DNA of 64,000 bases from an uncultured Thermococci archaeon (GTDB lineage Archaea > CAYQAE01 > CAYVLA01). The notes below the pieces were generated by a model that saw only the letters and a program-made list of their open reading frames with translations, was not told the origin of the DNA and searched no databases. Each line of letters begins with the position of its first letter. Position 1 is the stretch's first letter. Shown piece by piece: positions 2,705-38,485 of the stretch. The stretch covers positions 32,001-96,000 of the forward strand of contig CAZJVP010000020.1 in NCBI GenBank assembly GCA_964549615.1, given 5' to 3'. A program made the position numbers and the translations under genes.

Positions 2705-4294
2705 TTGAGGCTTCCCTTTCCGAGAAAAATCAGAAAGCCATCCGTGCTGCTGCTCCTCGGACTGCTCGTAGGTTTCCATCCAGTGTTGCGTCACGGTCTT
2801 CCCCGGAGCTCCGAAGCGTGGTCACACCTAGAGAACCTGCGAAGGATACCCAGCGGATGGGACGCCTTGAAGTTCGGCAAGATGCTCGAACTCTTCGAGA
2901 ATCGCCAACACTACACGAAGTACCCATTGTTCTACGTCATGGGTAAGCTTCTTCGCATCGACTCCCCCTTCAAAGCCGCAGCGTTCTCCGCCGCGGTGTT
3001 CGCACTCCTTCCGCTCCTCATGTTCTTCCTTGCCGGGTCGGTCCTACAAGAACAGGAGGCGTTCGCCGCCGGTCTCGCAGTTGCAGTGACGTCCGCCTTC
3101 GTGTACACGATGAATTTCTTCTCGGGGGGTGAGCCGCTTGCCGTCGCCCTACTGCTGGCGGGCCTAGTCCTGCACCTAAGACGCGGGCCCATCTTCAGCC
3201 TTCCGATCTATGCGGCGATAGTCTTCCTTCATCCTTTCACATCACTCTTCCTTTGGGCCCTGCTGCTTGTGATGCCGTTCTTTCTCAAGCCCGATTCCAA
3301 AAGACGCTTGATCGAGCAGTGCATCTGCACCGGGATATTCTCATCGACCTTCCTTGGGTGGATCGTGTTACAAATCTCACGTGGCCTTCCGCTTGGCGAT
3401 TACATCCTTTCCAGCCTCAAGGAATGGGTGCTCCTGACGGCATTCGTCTGCCTGACCGGAGGGAGCCTAGCTGTCCAAGCTATGGGGGTGAGATTCGATC
3501 AGGTCGGCCGCCTGTTTGACTTCGTTTCCTGCATGATGCGTCTGCACCTGAGGACATTGATCTTGGTCCTTGAACTTGGGTTTCTTGGCCTCTTTGTCTG
3601 CAGCGGCGTCCCCGGCACCGAACAGGTCGTGCAGCCCGCCACGGCCCTTTTCTACCTTCCCTTGCTTGCAGCGATCGGGATGGTCTTGCTGCGGAGGCGC
3701 GAGGTTGAGCCATTCAGCGTCACCTTTGTCGCATCCGGGATAGGCCTGTTCATGGCCGGCACGTTGATCGTACCCAGGGCAATACCTGCATACAGGCTGG
3801 CCCCGTATGGAGCCATGGGACTGTCTCTTCTCCTTGGGCCATGCGTCGCGCACCCCAAAGGTAGGCTGGTTCTTCCCATGGTCCTAGCGGCGCTTGCAGC
3901 AACGACATATCCGGGGCCTTCGTTCTACTTCGGTTTTGACGAGCAGTACTACCCCGCCGAGATGGCAGCGGTTTCCAGGATTCCGGATCTCACGGCGAAG
4001 GCATGTGTGCTGTCCGATGTGAGGGTGGAGGATCTGTTAAGGTACGAAACAGGGCTTTCGGCCAAGACGGCAGCCGGCGAGCTCTTGGAAGTCGACATTG
4101 GCTGCGTCGTGCTGTTGAATAACCAGATGCGCAAGCATGGATTCTACCCGCCCGGCCATGAGTGGTTTAGGCGCCCGTTCAAGCTGGATGTCATGGGGCT
4201 TGAGAAGGGGTCGACGACCATCTACGACAACGGCTGGGCGCAGATCCTCGTCGTCACCGAGAACGGGGTGAGCCTGGGGTTGGTTTCACGTTGA
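2705..4294 (+). CDS. Polytopic membrane protein, probable GT-C-fold glycosyltransferase-like
   Basis: About 12 hydrophobic segments, first loop GLPRSSEAWSH...YTKYP, soluble C-terminal domain; overlaps the downstream GT2 gene by 4 nt. Confidence 0.55.
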   Translation: MRLPFPRKIRKPSVLLLLGLLVGFHPVLRHGLPRSSEAWSHLENLRRIPSGWDALKFGKMLELFENRQHYTKYPLFYVMGKLLRIDSPFKAAAFSAAVFALLPLLMFFLAGSVLQEQEAFAAGLAVAVTSAFVYTMNFFSGGEPLAVALLLAGLVLHLRRGPIFSLPIYAAIVFLHPFTSLFLWALLLVMPFFLKPDSKRRLIEQCICTGIFSSTFLGWIVLQISRGLPLGDYILSSLKEWVLLTAFVCLTGGSLAVQAMGVRFDQVGRLFDFVSCMMRLHLRTLILVLELGFLGLFVCSGVPGTEQVVQPATALFYLPLLAAIGMVLLRRREVEPFSVTFVASGIGLFMAGTLIVPRAIPAYRLAPYGAMGLSLLLGPCVAHPKGRLVLPMVLAALAATTYPGPSFYFGFDEQYYPAEMAAVSRIPDLTAKACVLSDVRVEDLLRYETGLSAKTAAGELLEVDIGCVVLLNNQMRKHGFYPPGHEWFRRPFKLDVMGLEKGSTTIYDNGWAQILVVTENGVSLGLVSR

Positions 4295-30394: not shown

Positions 30395-30682
30395 TTACAC
30401 TTCGGGTCCTCGCGCTGATGCCTTGTTTTCCATGATGGCCTTGAGGACCTCATCCTTCGCCAAGCGACGCCCCGCCGAAACGAGCGCGCCCCCGACCACG
30501 ACTGCGGGCGTTGATCTCACTTGGTGCTGAAGAGCGGTCAGGAAATCTTCCTCCTTGTCGAGATCGTACTCCTTCAGTTCAATTTCGCCGGCCATCTCAT
30601 GGGCAAGCTCCGCAAGGATCTTCTTCGCATGTGGGCAGTTCGGACAGTCCTTCTTTGTGAACAGCATTACCTCAACCGGCAT
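30395..30682 (-). CDS. Thioredoxin/glutaredoxin-like protein
   Basis: CPNC active site and STP cis-Pro motif; 15 nt downstream of the nrdD-like gene. Confidence 0.9.
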   Translation of the reverse strand: MPVEVMLFTKKDCPNCPHAKKILAELAHEMAGEIELKEYDLDKEEDFLTALQHQVRSTPAVVVGGALVSAGRRLAKDEVLKAIMENKASARGPEV

Positions 30683-30697
30683 TCTGCTCCAGCTCCT

Positions 30698-32719
30698 TCA
30701 GATCGCATAGCGCTTCCTGTATAAGAGTTGTCTGCGTGACCCAGCGTTCCATCCCCCGATCTCCTCGCGAATCCCGACCCTGCTTACCTCGCCGCCGATC
30801 CTTGAAATCCAGTCGACATCCTCGGAGCGGCACGAGCTGCAGGCGTAGGACAACCCGGGAGACGTGGCATTACATCCCATGCACACCGTCAGGTCCTGCG
30901 TGAAGCTGAAAAGCCCAACCCCCGTTCGAGCCATCCTGAGCGTCTGCTTCCACAAGACCTCCGGCTTTGGCACGTCGGCCAACCACACATTGAAGGCCGC
31001 GCCTCCCCGAAGGAAGGGATGGAACTCGGCCTCTATCTCAAGCCTTTCCTCAAGGGGTATGTCTGCGGATGCCCTAACCTGCGCGCCGTCGGTATACGAA
31101 AAGGACCCGTCGGAAACATCTCCGTCCCCCACAAACCGAGCCTTGAACTCCCGGCGGTCGATGCGCGCCAACCTGTTGGTGGCCTCAAGCGAGGGCGACT
31201 GACAGATCCCGTAGCGCATGCCCGTCTCCCTCGACGACTCGCGCGCGAAATCGGCCATAAACCGGAGCAGTTCCAAGGCGAGGTGCCGGGCATCATCCGA
31301 CTCGTGGAGCTCCGACCCGGTGATGGACTTCACCGCCTCGTTCACGCCAACGACTCCGAAGAGCATGTGCTGCTTGTCGATCTCGAGCCTCGCCGCTTGG
31401 CCGACCGTCTGCGCAGCAAACCCGAGTGAACCCTCCTTCATCCTCGATTGTATCAGGTCCTTCTTCAACATGAGAACCGATCTTGCTAGGTTCATTCTCT
31501 CCAGCAGGAGATCGTACAGCCTCTTCTCCCTGCCGCGAGACTCGCAGGCGATCCTAGGAAGGTTGATTGTGACTTCCCCCAGCACACCACCCCTGAGGCT
31601 TCCGGTCTGTCCCGGAGAGCCCTCCACCATGAGCAGCGACTCAACCGAACAGTGCCAGGTCAGAATGTCGGGCCGGAACATATTGAGGAAGACCGGCGAG
31701 CCAAACCTCGCGGCCAGCTCGCACGCCGCGAGGTACTCGTCTCCAGATTCGTTTACCGCCTTGGGGTCGAGTTTGATTTCGACCTGCGGGAATGGGAAGG
31801 GCTTCCCGGTGAAGTCGCCCCTGAGGAGAACCTCGATCATGCCCCGGTATATGGCGAGCGACTCGTCGACGTAATCCGAGTATGTCTCCGGGCCCAAGAC
31901 CCCGCCCGGTTTCACCGCGCGAACTTCAAGGAGCTCCTGGGGAACTCCAGGATACAGGGAAACCGAGCTAAGCACCATCTGGCCTCCCCTCGCCACATAC
32001 TGCTGGCTCATCTCGTAGATGAACATCTGGCAAAGCTGCACGACGCCCCTTTCGTCCCTTCCCTCCAGGTACGGGGCCATGAAGACGTTGAAGAGGTTGT
32101 AGGACTGCCCCCCTGACCAGAAGACCTGGGACGCCGCGAGGGCCTTCGCGGCCTGGAATATGGCCACCTCGCCGTGCCTCGCGGGCCCGGCTACCGCGGT
32201 GTCCTTCCCGGACCCATCCACCTTCAGGCCCCACATTAGGATGTCCCTGAGATCATGGACGAAGCAGTAGGGGCGCGTGACGAAGTACTCCAGGTCGTGT
32301 ATGTGGATGACGCCACGGCGGTGGGCGTCCGCGATCTCGGTGGGGATGACCCTAGACAGCGCGTACTCCCTGGCTATCAGGTCGCCCATGTACTTGTGAA
32401 TCGATTCCGGATTGAACTGGGCGCTCGCCTCCATCCTCGCTTCGCCGGAAAGAATCCTCTGAACGTCGTACACCGGAAGGCCAAGCCGCTGATGCTTGGA
32501 CGCGATGTCGTCGAAGCCGTACTCTATTAGTTTGGCGTTGACGATTTCCCGGATCATCGTGGTCGTGGGCGATATGTCGATCCTCGAAAGATAGCTTTCG
32601 ACATCGGCGGCCACCTTCTCGGCGATGCGGAGCGGCGCGTTCGCCTCGTTCACGAGGGCCCTCACTATCTTGTTCCTATCGAAGGGCTCGATGGTGTCGT
32701 GGGAAGTCCGTACCCTCAA
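30698..32719 (-). CDS. Class III ribonucleotide reductase-like protein with ATP cone and degenerate catalytic motifs
   Basis: ATP cone, IHIHDLEY, RPYC, GGQS, TINLPRIA, GVVGVNE, CxxC-CxxC. Radical motif reads SRIGGE instead of SRITGY. Confidence 0.85.
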   Translation of the reverse strand: MRVRTSHDTIEPFDRNKIVRALVNEANAPLRIAEKVAADVESYLSRIDISPTTTMIREIVNAKLIEYGFDDIASKHQRLGLPVYDVQRILSGEARMEASAQFNPESIHKYMGDLIAREYALSRVIPTEIADAHRRGVIHIHDLEYFVTRPYCFVHDLRDILMWGLKVDGSGKDTAVAGPARHGEVAIFQAAKALAASQVFWSGGQSYNLFNVFMAPYLEGRDERGVVQLCQMFIYEMSQQYVARGGQMVLSSVSLYPGVPQELLEVRAVKPGGVLGPETYSDYVDESLAIYRGMIEVLLRGDFTGKPFPFPQVEIKLDPKAVNESGDEYLAACELAARFGSPVFLNMFRPDILTWHCSVESLLMVEGSPGQTGSLRGGVLGEVTINLPRIACESRGREKRLYDLLLERMNLARSVLMLKKDLIQSRMKEGSLGFAAQTVGQAARLEIDKQHMLFGVVGVNEAVKSITGSELHESDDARHLALELLRFMADFARESSRETGMRYGICQSPSLEATNRLARIDRREFKARFVGDGDVSDGSFSYTDGAQVRASADIPLEERLEIEAEFHPFLRGGAAFNVWLADVPKPEVLWKQTLRMARTGVGLFSFTQDLTVCMGCNATSPGLSYACSSCRSEDVDWISRIGGEVSRVGIREEIGGWNAGSRRQLLYRKRYAI

Positions 32720-32734
32720 TGTCCTACCGGCTTA

Positions 32735-32800
32735 TGAGAATTTCGATGAATGTCGGTTGACTGATAAGTAGCAATATATATAAAATTGAGCTTTTAAGCG
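32735..32800. promoter_or_regulatory. AT-rich divergent promoter region between the nrdD-like gene and the wHTH-thpR-cca unit
   Basis: aatatatataaaa at ~32772-32784 and ttttaa at ~32792, between divergent start codons. Confidence 0.6.
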
Positions 32801-32822: not shown

Positions 32823-33308
32823 TTGATGCTTTCAAGAGCCGAAATGCAACTCCTCATATCGTTGAGGGATTCCTTCAAGACCAGGAGCGAGCTGGACGCT
32901 GAGGATCTCTGCCACAGGGACACGCTTTCCAAGTGCCTCAGAAGGATGGAAGAGCTGGGATTCATCCTCAGGACGCCCAGGTGGATGGACGGGCGCTACA
33001 CGGCCGAGTTCAACCTCACCAGGTGGGGCAGGGAGATGGCCCTGATTCTGGAATCCTTCAAGCTCGGGGATATGCCCGAGACGGGCATCACGGAGCAGCG
33101 CTTCAGGATCATGCTCCTCTGCAGGGAGGGCAAACGGTTCGGCGAAATACGCGATGAGCTCGGGATAGCCGAGCCGAACGTGGACAGACAGCTGAAGATC
33201 CTTCTAGCGGCAGGGATCATCCAGAAGGAGGGCGATGCATACCTGCTCAGTCCGAGTGGCAGGGCTCTTGTGAAGACCTTGGAACAGAAGGCAAGCCAGG
33301 CGATGTAA
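32823..33308 (+). CDS. Tandem winged-helix (ArsR/HxlR-like) transcriptional regulator
   Basis: Two wHTH repeats: TLSKCLRRMEELGFI...FNLTRWG and NVDRQLKILLAAGII...YLLSPSG. Confidence 0.8.
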   Translation: MMLSRAEMQLLISLRDSFKTRSELDAEDLCHRDTLSKCLRRMEELGFILRTPRWMDGRYTAEFNLTRWGREMALILESFKLGDMPETGITEQRFRIMLLCREGKRFGEIRDELGIAEPNVDRQLKILLAAGIIQKEGDAYLLSPSGRALVKTLEQKASQAM

Positions 33309-35284: not shown

Positions 35285-35394
35285 TGTTCAACAACTTACG
35301 ATAATTTCCACATGTATCCGAAATCTTTATAAGTCGCGGACGCGCACGCAAACGCCACCCGATTTCCCTCATTGCCGACTCGGCGGCGATTACC

Positions 35395-37626
35395 ATGGCG
35401 TGGACCAACAAGATGCCTGAGGTTCGGAAGAGCATAGGGGTGATAAAGCCCTGGAACAGGAAGGAGATCTACGACTCCCTGATCAAGGAAGCTGGCATCT
35501 CGCCAACGATGGCGAACAAGATCACAGACCTCGTCGAACTGGAACTCCGCCGGCTCAAGATCGAGAAGAACGTGGAGTGGCTTTCAGGAGAGATGATCAG
35601 GGTACTAGTCGAGAGGGAGTTGATCAATCAGGGGCTGGAGAACGAACGGAAGCTCTACAGCAGGACCGGCATGCCCCTCTATGACCTGGAGCAGCTCTAC
35701 TTCCATTACGACTGGGAGAACAGCAACCAGCACCCTGCCCCCGAGTTCATCCATAAGACCATGGCCGACCAGATGAGCCGTCAGTACGCGCTGATGAAGC
35801 TGTTTAACGTCGACATAACCACCTCCACGGGGGCCAGCTACAACCTGTCGGATGCCCACATGAGCGGGATGATCCACATCCACGACCTCGACTACCTCGA
35901 CCGGCCTTTCTGCAACCAGATCTCGGGACGCTATGTCTTTCGCAACGGCCTCTACATCGACGGCACGGGCCAGTATTGCAACGTCTCATCGCCGCCCAAG
36001 CACCTGGATACCGCCATCAAGCTCGCGTGCGAGTTTCTGGCCGCCTGCAGCAGGAACTGGAATGGCGGCCAAGCCTGGAGGAACATTGCGTGGGAGCTCG
36101 GACCCTTCATCGAGAAGGCAGCCAAGACGAGTTGGACGACGAAGGCCGTCAACGGCATGCAGATCCCCGCCAACATCGTCCAGGGCGCGCAGACCCTGAG
36201 GTATGAGCCGAACCACATACTGGTATCAAGGGGCAGCCAGGCGGCCTTCTCGACCTCGTACTTCCAGGCGAAGCCGCCGAAGTACCTCAGGGAAGCGGAC
36301 GTGGTTTTGCCGGGCGGCGAGGTTGAGAGGGACTCCAGCTACGAGCAGTATGCCGAGTACGTCTACATGTTCATGTACGCCTACCTGATGGAGTCCATAA
36401 AGGGCGATCACTCTGGGAAGATGTTCGACTGGATGAAGGACGACATCAGCATCGACCCAAAGCTCAGGTCGGACAATGAGATCTGCGAGAACATCTACGA
36501 GCCCACGATGAAGTACATCGCCAAGTTTGGCGGACCGTACCTGCTCAACGGCCGCAACGTCCAGGATGATGAGGTCGAATGCTCCTCCTGCTGCTCCCTG
36601 GTGATAAGATCCAAGGATCCAGAGGACTTCGAGTTAGCCGCAAAGGGGGTTCTCCAACAGGGCGGGTTTTCCTGCACGACCCTCAACCTGCCAAGGATCG
36701 CCTACGATGCTCACGGCGACGATGATGTCTTCTTCGAGCTTCTCCGGGAGCGAATGGAGGTCATGCGGGAGGTTCATCTGATCCGGCGGGAGTTCTTCAG
36801 GAAGGTGATGAAGAGCGGCGCCACTCCCTTCCTCCTGCAGCCGAGAATCAGGAGCGGCCCGGACAAGGACCTTACTCCCTTCTTTGACCTGGACAAGCAA
36901 AGCCTGCTCATGGGGATGGTTGGCCTCAATGAGGCCGTCCAGAAGCACCTGGGGCAGGAGCTCCACGAATCAGCGGATGCCCACAGGTTCGGCCTCAAAA
37001 CAATAAAGGCGATGGTCGACGCCGCGGCAGAGTTCAGTGAAGAGACCGGCGCGCCCTTCGCCGTATGGAGGACGCCAGCCGAAACCGCAGCCCACCGACT
37101 CGCCGGCATCGATAACGAGCTTTACGGAAACGAGGCAATCGTCCGGGGCGACCGGCGGTCAGGGGCCGTCTACTACACGAACTCCACGCACGTCAGGGTC
37201 TCTGCGGACGTCCCGCTCTTCCGAAGGATCCTGCTTGAGTCCTCCTTCCACGCGCTCCTAGGCAGCAACCTGCTGCACATCTGGTTGGGCGAGGGCAACC
37301 CTGACCCCGAGGCCATTTGGTCGCTCACCGAGAAGATCATTAACCAGACGGCGGCCGAGTACTTCACGTATACCAAGGAGATCAGCACCTGCTACAGCTG
37401 CTTCACGACCTTCTCCGGAATCGTCGACCGCTGCCCCAACTGCGGCCAGGACGGCAGCAACATCTACGTTCAGTCCCGCATCACCGGGTACATGTCGACC
37501 ATCGGAAGAGCAAAGGACATAATCGCGCTCAAGAACAGGGATATGACGGCGCTCGAGAATCTTCACTGGAACAAGGGAAAGAGCATGGAGATGATCGAGA
37601 GACACAGGACCCCGAACCTCTCTTGA
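35395..37626 (+). CDS. nrdD: Anaerobic (class III) ribonucleoside-triphosphate reductase
   Basis: ATP cone, IHIHDLDY, RPFC, finger-loop SSCCSL, TPAETAAHR, YYTNSTH, CYSC/CPNC, glycyl-radical motif SRITGY, WNKGK..E. Confidence 0.93.
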   Translation: MAWTNKMPEVRKSIGVIKPWNRKEIYDSLIKEAGISPTMANKITDLVELELRRLKIEKNVEWLSGEMIRVLVERELINQGLENERKLYSRTGMPLYDLEQLYFHYDWENSNQHPAPEFIHKTMADQMSRQYALMKLFNVDITTSTGASYNLSDAHMSGMIHIHDLDYLDRPFCNQISGRYVFRNGLYIDGTGQYCNVSSPPKHLDTAIKLACEFLAACSRNWNGGQAWRNIAWELGPFIEKAAKTSWTTKAVNGMQIPANIVQGAQTLRYEPNHILVSRGSQAAFSTSYFQAKPPKYLREADVVLPGGEVERDSSYEQYAEYVYMFMYAYLMESIKGDHSGKMFDWMKDDISIDPKLRSDNEICENIYEPTMKYIAKFGGPYLLNGRNVQDDEVECSSCCSLVIRSKDPEDFELAAKGVLQQGGFSCTTLNLPRIAYDAHGDDDVFFELLRERMEVMREVHLIRREFFRKVMKSGATPFLLQPRIRSGPDKDLTPFFDLDKQSLLMGMVGLNEAVQKHLGQELHESADAHRFGLKTIKAMVDAAAEFSEETGAPFAVWRTPAETAAHRLAGIDNELYGNEAIVRGDRRSGAVYYTNSTHVRVSADVPLFRRILLESSFHALLGSNLLHIWLGEGNPDPEAIWSLTEKIINQTAAEYFTYTKEISTCYSCFTTFSGIVDRCPNCGQDGSNIYVQSRITGYMSTIGRAKDIIALKNRDMTALENLHWNKGKSMEMIERHRTPNLS

Positions 37627-38071: not shown

Positions 38072-38485
38072 ATGCCAGGCTCAGCGAACCTCGCAACCCT
38101 CGGACTCCTACTGGTCCTCATCACGGCTGGGTGCCTTTCTTCCTCGGTCGAACCCGGTAGCCAGGCCAATCAGACAGACAACGCCACCTCGACCAAGATG
38201 ATCTACTACTACTTCTACAGTGACGCGTGCCCCGCCTGCAAACTGATGGAGCAGACCACGCTATCCAACAGAACGGTCTTGGATGCGCTCGAGGCAAATT
38301 TCATCCTCAGGAAAACGAATGCTGCCACGAACGCGCGCCTCGCGCAGAGATACGGCATCGTGTTCGTGCCCACGAGCGTCTTCACGCGCCCCGACGGAGA
38401 GGAGCTCAGGAGGGTTGTGGGTGCGGTCCCGGCCGAAGAGTTCCTCAAGCTGCTGGACGAGGTCGTCGCCCTGGCGCAAGGCTGA
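38072..38485 (+). CDS. Secreted/lipoprotein thioredoxin-fold protein
   Basis: Lipobox-like TAGC, CPAC active site, VPT cis-Pro. Confidence 0.88.
   Translation: MPGSANLATLGLLLVLITAGCLSSSVEPGSQANQTDNATSTKMIYYYFYSDACPACKLMEQTTLSNRTVLDALEANFILRKTNAATNARLAQRYGIVFVPTSVFTRPDGEELRRVVGAVPAEEFLKLLDEVVALAQG

Follow-up and report, generated by a model that had tools for sequence, protein, structure and literature searches.

We find that an archaeal genome encodes, next to a working class III ribonucleotide reductase (RNR), a second NrdD that has lost its catalytic motifs and kept its predicted nucleotide-binding half. The gene, here called psiNrdD (30698..32719, minus strand), lies in a 64,000-nucleotide stretch of DNA (the window; positions 32,001 to 96,000 of contig CAZJVP010000020.1, assembly GCA_964549615.1) from an uncultured Thermococci archaeon. 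Comparison with its orthologues makes it very probable that psiNrdD is a conserved NrdD descendant, kept by selection and almost certainly no longer reducing nucleotides. We tentatively propose that it is a homodimeric nucleotide sensor tied to the transcriptional control of class III RNR genes, probably acting with HTH161, a winged helix-turn-helix (wHTH) protein encoded by the divergent neighboring gene.

The psiNrdD frame runs uninterrupted for 673 amino acids (aa) from a TTG codon at 32719, the residue at which its orthologues have ATG. Open reading frame (ORF), family matches, BLASTP, and orthologues identify it as a degenerate class III RNR paralogue. It matches the Pfam families NRDD (PF13597, 2.9e-106) and ATP-cone (PF03477, 2.4e-8; 34.9 bits against a cut-off of 25.8), and it scores 330.9 bits against the NCBIfam NrdD equivalog TIGR02487, marginally above the cut-off of 326.35. 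BLASTP aligns it at 31% identity with the working-type NrdD of the window (743 aa; 35395..37626, plus strand), in which all catalytic motifs are present. A first-pass annotation of this DNA had listed motif changes between the two proteins, and all are found in the alignment: SRITGY to SRIGGE, SSCCSL to WHCSVE, TPAE to SPSL, YTNSTH to YTDGAQ, HIWLGE to NVWLAD, and WNKGK..E to WNAGS..Q, the first of these at exactly 30805-30788. The features it had described as kept (the 673-aa frame, ATP-cone, HIHD, RPxC, GGQ, and four Zn cysteines) are likewise present in the sequence.

The losses extend across the psiNrdD orthologues. Motif counts are for 11 psi sequences, comprising 10 full-length clusters and the copy in genome G002, with P0006, P0015, and P0054 dropped as incomplete; all motif coordinates are on the minus strand. 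At what remains of the NxN substrate flap (residues 96-101, 32417..32434), psiNrdD reads MEASAQ where relatives have ENANLQ, and the two Asn residues (Asn97 and Asn99) are kept in 0/11. These flap residues contact the γ-phosphate and base of the substrate in Prevotella copri NrdD (PcNrdD), according to its cryo–electron microscopy (cryo-EM) report (PMC11226230). SPSLE (residues 508-512, 31184..31198) replaces TPAES, with Glu511 kept in 1/11 and an invariant new cysteine, Cys506, just before it. YTDGAQ (residues 542-547, 31079..31096) replaces YTNSxH; Asn544 is kept in 1/11, and Ser545 has become Gly in 11/11. NVWLAD (residues 577-582, 30974..30991) replaces HxWLGE, where neither His577 nor Glu582 is kept (0/11 each). 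In the Gly loop, SRIGGE (residues 639-644, 30788..30805), the glycyl-radical motif RxxGY is broken: Gly643 stays in 11/11, Tyr644 is gone from all 11 (E/G/A/R instead), and the preceding Thr is variable. The PcNrdD report also describes the Tyr after the radical Gly as bonding a Glu that bridges to substrate and flap (PMC11226230).

The finger loop is similarly altered. Its tip, CSVES (residues 357-361, 31637..31651), replaces xxQCC, and Q-C-C has become V-E-[S/G/P] in 11/11. The alignment here is ambiguous: a gapless alignment from the FLN anchor places Glu360-Ser361 at the Cys-Cys pair and Cys357 three to four residues upstream, while another solution matches Cys357 to the first Cys of the pair. 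Under the gapless alignment, the radical-initiator position is S/G/P in 11/11. The initial annotation had remarked that one Gly and one loop Cys remain; both are indeed there, with the refinement that this Cys may lie upstream of the pair. Of the signature of thioredoxin-type enzymes (finger-loop Cys-Cys plus TPAE Glu), the Cys pair is gone except for CC-VE in G002, and the Glu survives in the single sequence noted above. Cys357 itself is kept in 10/11 and is Ser in locus L049, and Cys152, the first-strand (“bottom”) active-site Cys (32264..32266), is kept in 10/11 and is Ser in the G001 orthologue. Both replacements are real codon changes (TCG and AGC, respectively).

Other parts of the protein are retained. 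The Zn(Cys)4 site (Cys613/616/627/630, 30830..30883) is invariant in every aligned sequence. HIHD (residues 139-142, 32294..32305), called the triphosphate motif in the Thermotoga maritima NrdD (TmNrdD) structure paper (PMC4493059), is retained only in part: it is intact in the window protein, but its second His is kept in 8/11 orthologues and is R/G in the other 3/11. The protein begins directly with the ATP-cone (residues 2-74, 32498..32716; PF03477), without a fused wHTH domain, and mean pairwise identity over the cone is 0.80 in the psi clade. The specificity-site hairpin, helices αA and αB, and loop 2 follow (residues 161-255, 31955..32239), with clade pairwise identities of 0.80-0.85. 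In TmNrdD, the specificity effector sits along helices αA/αB at the dimer interface (PMC4493059).

In 98 relatives, 188 alignment columns show conservation of 95% or more, and we read the 11 psi sequences against these. Of the 188, psiNrdD retains 120 and alters 68. This raw count is uninformative because the working NrdD of the window, which belongs to another subfamily, retains only 129 of the same 188; which positions change is decisive. Kept columns amount to 22/27 in the specificity hairpin and αA, 17/21 in αB and loop 2 (39/48 for the region as a whole), and 13/19 in the ATP-cone, as against 0/6 in the finger loop, 2/7 in the TPAE region, 6/16 in residues 521-600, and 11/20 in the Zn ribbon and Gly-loop scaffold. 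Pairwise identity within the psi clade follows the same division, at 78-85% over the first 255 residues and 44-63% over the C-terminal half, the least conserved part. The clade also has invariant residues of its own: Cys230 (11/11; Ala in 99% of relatives), Cys333, Cys506, and the S/C-V-E finger-loop tip. Ser639-Arg640 is invariant in it as well.

Searching 5.8 billion proteins, we obtained 907 matches at E ≤ 1e-30. Among the best 120 of these, 13 are 63-100% identical to psiNrdD: 10 full-length (670-675 aa), one without its N-terminus, and two fragments. The next-best of these 120 are ordinary archaeal NrdDs at no more than 47% identity, and the nearest relatives of psiNrdD among them are thioredoxin-type NrdDs (43-47%). 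The 11 psi orthologues span three genera. The GTDB class comprises five genomes, and psiNrdD occurs in three (G000, G001, and G002); it was not found in the remaining two, G003 (91% complete) and G004. Synteny is constant in all loci with flanks: DUF2070, HDAC, an exported-looking thioredoxin, and nrdD; on the opposite strand, the CCA-adding enzyme, LigT, and wHTH genes; and the divergent psiNrdD and redoxin genes.

We estimated ratios of nonsynonymous to synonymous substitution (dN/dS) by the pairwise Nei-Gojobori method for the least-saturated pairs, most other pairs being near saturation. psiNrdD gives 0.125 at dS 0.52 and 0.107 at dS 1.0, compared with 0.123 for HDAC, 0.103 for the CCA-adding enzyme, 0.089 for HTH161, and 0.041 for the working NrdD (0.04-0.10 overall). 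Recent decay of psiNrdD is excluded, because its dN/dS of about 0.1 is like that of housekeeping neighbors. The first-pass annotation had named recent decay, with orthologues absent or carrying canonical motifs, as the outcome that would overturn its view; instead, the same motif losses recur in 11 orthologues and are thus due neither to chance nor to recent decay. The 11 psi sequences group as a single clade (SH-aLRT 100) in a 77-row tree (IQ-TREE quick search, LG+G4); its stem measures 0.85 substitutions/site, and it is nested among catalytically intact relatives. Tips of the psi clade are several-fold longer than the working-NrdD tips of the same genomes, and identity across loci is 62-83% for psiNrdD and 87-95% for the working NrdD.

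psiNrdD occupies the position that an intact nrdD and its redoxin gene hold in other archaea, where LigT also adjoins in two loci. It is the positional descendant of the lineage's original thioredoxin-type class III RNR. This original copy probably lost its chemistry after a second NrdD had been acquired. The nearest relatives of the working NrdD outside the lineage are found in Methanofastidiosia (46-48% identity). In G002, the nrdD slot holds yet another NrdD subfamily (MCCR type; L045 2072-4438), 26% identical to the NrdD of the window, and the old nrdD promoter and operator are retained about 190 nucleotides (nt) further upstream of the replaced gene. The window's genome (3.2 Mb, 99.5% complete) has psiNrdD and the working NrdD as its sole two NrdD homologues, one NrdG2 activase (TIGR02495, 189 bits; C90:55782-56351) on a different contig, and a class II RNR with an ATP-cone. 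NrdR was not found in it (no TIGR00244 match). The best DNA match to the window, perhaps its own source, is recorded as a hot-spring metagenome.

We find that the psiNrdD and working nrdD promoters carry the same lineage-specific predicted operator. A common motif, yrTCGAAATTnTCrTAAG (16-18 nt), occurs in the 103-nt region upstream of psiNrdD and in the ~110-nt region upstream of nrdD. In the psiNrdD promoter, it is CATCGAAATTCTCATAAG (32731..32748, minus strand), ending 11 nt before the start codon and lying downstream of a putative TATA-like box, TTTTATATATA (32775..32785, minus strand), which is an invariant alignment block. Upstream of nrdD (35295..35333, plus strand), the motif (35295-35310) is inverted and sits shortly before the TATA-like box, and a weaker second half-site lies over that box, TTTATAAG (35316-35333). 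The motif is present in 6/6 psiNrdD and 6/6 nrdD orthologous promoter regions. Since these regions defined the pattern, the independent tests come from a genome scan, a scan of 88 loci, and the promoter alignments. Genome-wide, four matches with up to two mismatches were found, the best two (zero and one mismatch) being the psiNrdD and nrdD promoters and the other two lying inside ORFs; the reversed genome gave none. Across the 88 loci (569 kb), all 25 matches fall in psi-clade loci at these two promoter positions, and in the promoter-set alignments, invariant blocks occur solely at the TATA-like boxes and the motif. The motif was not found upstream of nrdJ or nrdG, either by eye or in the genome-wide scan with up to two mismatches.

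The gene divergent from psiNrdD, HTH161 (32823..33308, plus strand), encodes 161 aa with two winged-helix domains (Pfam HVO_A0261_N, HTH_5, and HTH_20) and is the first gene of an HTH161-LigT-CCA operon. HTH161 orthologues are present in the three genomes with psiNrdD and absent from the two without it, these genomes being few and related.

Dead NrdD copies also stand beside working RNR genes elsewhere. In 9/27 metagenome loci, a second NrdD-like gene lies directly upstream of an intact nrdD (L053:4101-6602, L055:4190-6616, L056:1616-4081, L060:1000-3306, L061:4451-6757, L062:1672-3996, L066:4437-6758, L069:4230-6611, and L079:2054-4369). All nine encode a wHTH domain (PF24038/ArsR-type, DUF7347) fused to an ATP-cone and an NRDD domain, and they are 44-95% identical to one another. 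The NxN flap and first-strand Cys are missing in 9/9, the finger loop has no Cys in 8/9, and the radical Gly is Ala in 8/9; the Zn cysteines are kept. In the 77-row tree, they form a clade separate from psiNrdD. The second wHTH of HTH161 matches the fused wHTH domain with an hhalign probability of 88% (E 2.8e-6), whereas BLASTP of HTH161 against the fused domain from two loci gave no match.

From this, we suggest how psiNrdD might work. It would no longer reduce nucleotides, and its homodimer would sense ATP/dATP at the cone and deoxynucleoside triphosphates (dNTPs) at the specificity site. Its signal would feed the transcriptional control of class III RNR genes, most likely with HTH161; as two separate proteins, they would parallel the fused wHTH/ATP-cone/dead-NrdD proteins and would be functionally analogous to bacterial NrdR. 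Purifying selection preserves what remains of psiNrdD, most strongly its ATP-cone and specificity-site/dimer half. A more specific version, which we hold a shade more cautiously still, is a split switch: acting at the shared operator via its wHTH partner, psiNrdD would set its own transcription and that of nrdD. Such a switch would be an analogue of NrdR in archaea, representing a stage earlier than that of the fused proteins. The retained Gly/Zn domain could also report activase or oxygen status.

Several observations weigh against the sensor proposal. A shared operator indicates co-regulation and does not make psiNrdD the regulator. HTH161 is also the first gene of an operon that includes LigT and the CCA-adding enzyme, so its targets may lie elsewhere; its co-occurrence with psiNrdD is a tiny count (3 versus 2 related genomes), and its similarity to the fused wHTH escapes BLASTP. 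Because the fused proteins are a separate clade, they offer an analogy and not homology of function. Furthermore, a pure sensor leaves unexplained the invariant Gly643 and Zn site, Cys152 and Cys357 (each 10/11), the invariant new Cys230, Cys333, and Cys506 with the S/C-V-E tip, and the intact CPNC redoxin gene directly downstream.

That redoxin, Trx95 (30395..30682, minus strand), is a 95-aa thioredoxin/glutaredoxin-like protein (Thioredoxin_3, 7.4e-12) encoded 15 nt downstream of psiNrdD, and its CPNC motif is invariant in all eight loci that carry the gene. Redoxins of the same family (CPxCP...ALQxQ..STP) also accompany catalytically intact relatives: in 40 loci of other archaea, the gene lies directly downstream in nine cases and upstream in two, counts that are limited by the many loci ending at the NrdD gene. 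The coupling is inherited from the ancestral nrdD operon. Since intact relatives carry the same redoxin family downstream, it is not special to psiNrdD. Moreover, G002 keeps psiNrdD and has no Trx95 orthologue (best match 27% identity, E 7e-4). Thus, the earlier description of psiNrdD as coupled to a thioredoxin stands for the gene arrangement and not as a distinguishing property. A complex prediction for psiNrdD and Trx95 scored 0.00 in a run without controls, a value that speaks neither for nor against binding. The thioredoxin gene after the working nrdD (38072-38485, plus strand) encodes an N-terminal hydrophobic segment, a lipobox-like Cys, and a CPAC motif. Its product is probably exported and not the cytoplasmic reductant of NrdD; Trx95 may therefore now serve the working NrdD. 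In our proposal, it would be the ancestral NrdD reductant gene left behind, probably now in the service of the second enzyme.

The retained Gly643, Zn site, cysteines, and redoxin leave some room for a redox or radical role, although we consider it unlikely. psiNrdD would then be a repurposed protein performing a reaction or signal other than nucleoside triphosphate (NTP) reduction, either through Gly643 activated by NrdG or through thiol/disulfide or metal chemistry at Cys152/230/333/357/506 served by the CPNC redoxin. This would account for the invariance of Gly643, Ser639-Arg640, and the Zn(Cys)4 site; of Cys230, Cys506, Cys333, and the S/C-V-E tip; and of the CPNC motif, and the genome's one NrdG2 could supply the activation. 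However, each candidate radical-relay Cys has been lost in one orthologue (Cys152 and Cys357, both to Ser), and the residue after Gly643 varies as it would under relaxed constraint. Conservation is lowest in the C-terminal half, and the elements that bind substrate are degraded. The redoxin, for its part, is explained by ancestry and is dispensed with in G002.

Less likely again is a modulator acting at the protein level, a decoy or scaffold that adjusts activation to nucleotide levels by binding either NrdG, via its Zn/Gly domain, or NrdD. The Zn ribbon and Gly-loop scaffold is partly retained (the 11/20 columns above), and this region is thought to meet the activase, according to the TmNrdD paper (PMC4493059). 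A single NrdG serves two NrdD-like proteins, and the ATP-cone of the window's own NrdD falls below the Pfam cut-off that the psiNrdD cone exceeds. Against this, nrdG lies on another contig without the shared operator, and the partner NrdD in G002 has been swapped for one of a distant subfamily.

The earlier annotation had offered, as its first option, a catalytically dead, nucleotide-sensing subunit in an asymmetric heterodimer with the neighboring NrdD. The first part agrees with our results, in that the catalytic elements are disabled and the ATP-cone/specificity half is the most constrained; the heterodimer, we think, is improbable. The two genes are always close and share an operator, and the PcNrdD dimer is described as having one active monomer at a time (PMC11226230). 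Nevertheless, the dimer/specificity helices of psiNrdD match those of its own genome's NrdD at only 18/55 and 12/40 positions (33% and 30%), as against 33/55 and 23/40 (60% and 58%) for a catalytically intact relative. psiNrdD also persists in G002, where the partner has been replaced by an NrdD 26% identical to that of the window, and the gap in conservation between the working NrdD (87-95%) and psiNrdD (62-83%) gives no sign of co-evolution.

It is very unlikely that psiNrdD is still a working RNR with unusual motifs. It does pass the TIGR02487 cut-off, and motif reading can mislead: TmNrdD is active although its crystal structure has no Cys at the loop tip (PMC4493059). Unlike that single case, the losses in psiNrdD are concerted, affecting substrate-contacting and radical-relay elements all together, and several vary among orthologues; moreover, the same genome supplies both an intact NrdD and a class II RNR. 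Finally, a decaying, functionless gene, which the lost catalytic motifs and the long stem might suggest, has a negligible probability given the intact frame (670-675 aa in every full-length orthologue), the clade's own invariant residues, and the dN/dS of about 0.1 and synteny across three genera on which we rejected pseudogene decay.

The working NrdD has features of its own. Its ATP-cone (35395-35650) scores 20.8 bits, under the Pfam cut-off of 25.8, and it may be the dead copy that now carries activity regulation. It is 87-95% identical between the window and loci L044 and L046-L049, where other genes of these genomes are 50-80% identical, and its dS is also lower (0.75-1.4 versus 1.0-1.9). 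This reflects either very strong constraint or recent spread among lineages. In L050, a single-base change of GGA to TGA (3204-3206) splits nrdD at codon 381, and the otherwise identical contig L048 is intact; the stop is either a variant or an assembly error. Among archaeal NrdD relatives, many are ~1140-1170 aa long with intein/LAGLIDADG domains (PF14528 and PF14890; P0028, P0030, P0032, P0036, P0039, and others).

Further degenerate NrdD copies occur in small-genome archaea. Those in L027, L028, L031, L068, L071, and L074 are shortened and form two groups, which lack the entire Zn/Gly C-terminal domain and the finger-loop Cys. L021 carries a full-length paralogue that retains GY and has lost both active-site cysteines. 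Together with psiNrdD, the independently degenerate fused and shortened copies suggest that conversion of a spare NrdD to a noncatalytic protein has happened repeatedly.

To our knowledge, the control of RNR genes in Archaea is largely unknown, and NrdR is mainly bacterial. A reductase copy without chemistry and with both allosteric nucleotide sites would, if our proposal holds, be a ready-made sensor of the dNTP pool. This lineage provides the unfused case, with a defined predicted operator at two promoters, and makes the hypothesis directly testable. In full-text literature searches, we found no description of a dead NrdD pseudoenzyme or of the fused wHTH/ATP-cone/NrdD form. As far as we have found, the psiNrdD type of dead NrdD, the shared operator, and the co-occurrence with a wHTH gene are new points of this analysis. 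There is also a practical consequence. Because psiNrdD passes the NCBIfam equivalog cut-off, annotation pipelines will report it as catalytically active, and counts of RNRs in such genomes will come out too high.

Among known systems, the closest in structure is the thioredoxin-type class III RNR, designated NrdD2 in the subtyping of Wei et al. (third Cys plus Glu), as given in the TmNrdD paper (PMC4493059); solved examples include T. maritima 4COI/4U3E. psiNrdD shares with NrdD2 its fold family, length, ATP-cone, specificity helices, Zn(Cys)4 site, Gly loop, and downstream redoxin gene, and differs in lacking the Asn residues of NxN, the Cys pair of the finger loop, the Glu of TPAE, the Asn of YTNS, HxxxGE, and the Tyr that follows Gly.

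In Bathyarchaeia-like and other archaea, the fused wHTH/ATP-cone/dead-NrdD proteins resemble psiNrdD in being dead NrdDs with an ATP-cone beside a working RNR gene. Their origin is independent, however. psiNrdD has no fused wHTH and is instead divergent from a wHTH gene, and it has Gly643, which is Ala in 8/9 of the fused proteins, and Cys152.

A precedent for keeping a full-length RNR paralogue after the loss of catalytic residues is yeast Rnr4, a catalytically inactive paralogue of the β (radical-generating) subunit that pairs with Rnr2. In contrast to Rnr4, psiNrdD derives from the glycyl-radical-class catalytic subunit, and our data do not support a heterodimer.

The closest functional comparison is with NrdR, the bacterial RNR repressor, which combines a Zn-ribbon with an ATP-cone (PMC9110341 and PMC12176259). 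Only the ATP-cone is common to the two proteins; psiNrdD itself lacks a DNA-binding domain and, in the function we propose, would need a separate wHTH partner. The proposed likeness lies in the logic of control, in which an ATP-cone protein would read nucleotide levels and control RNR promoters through a shared box.

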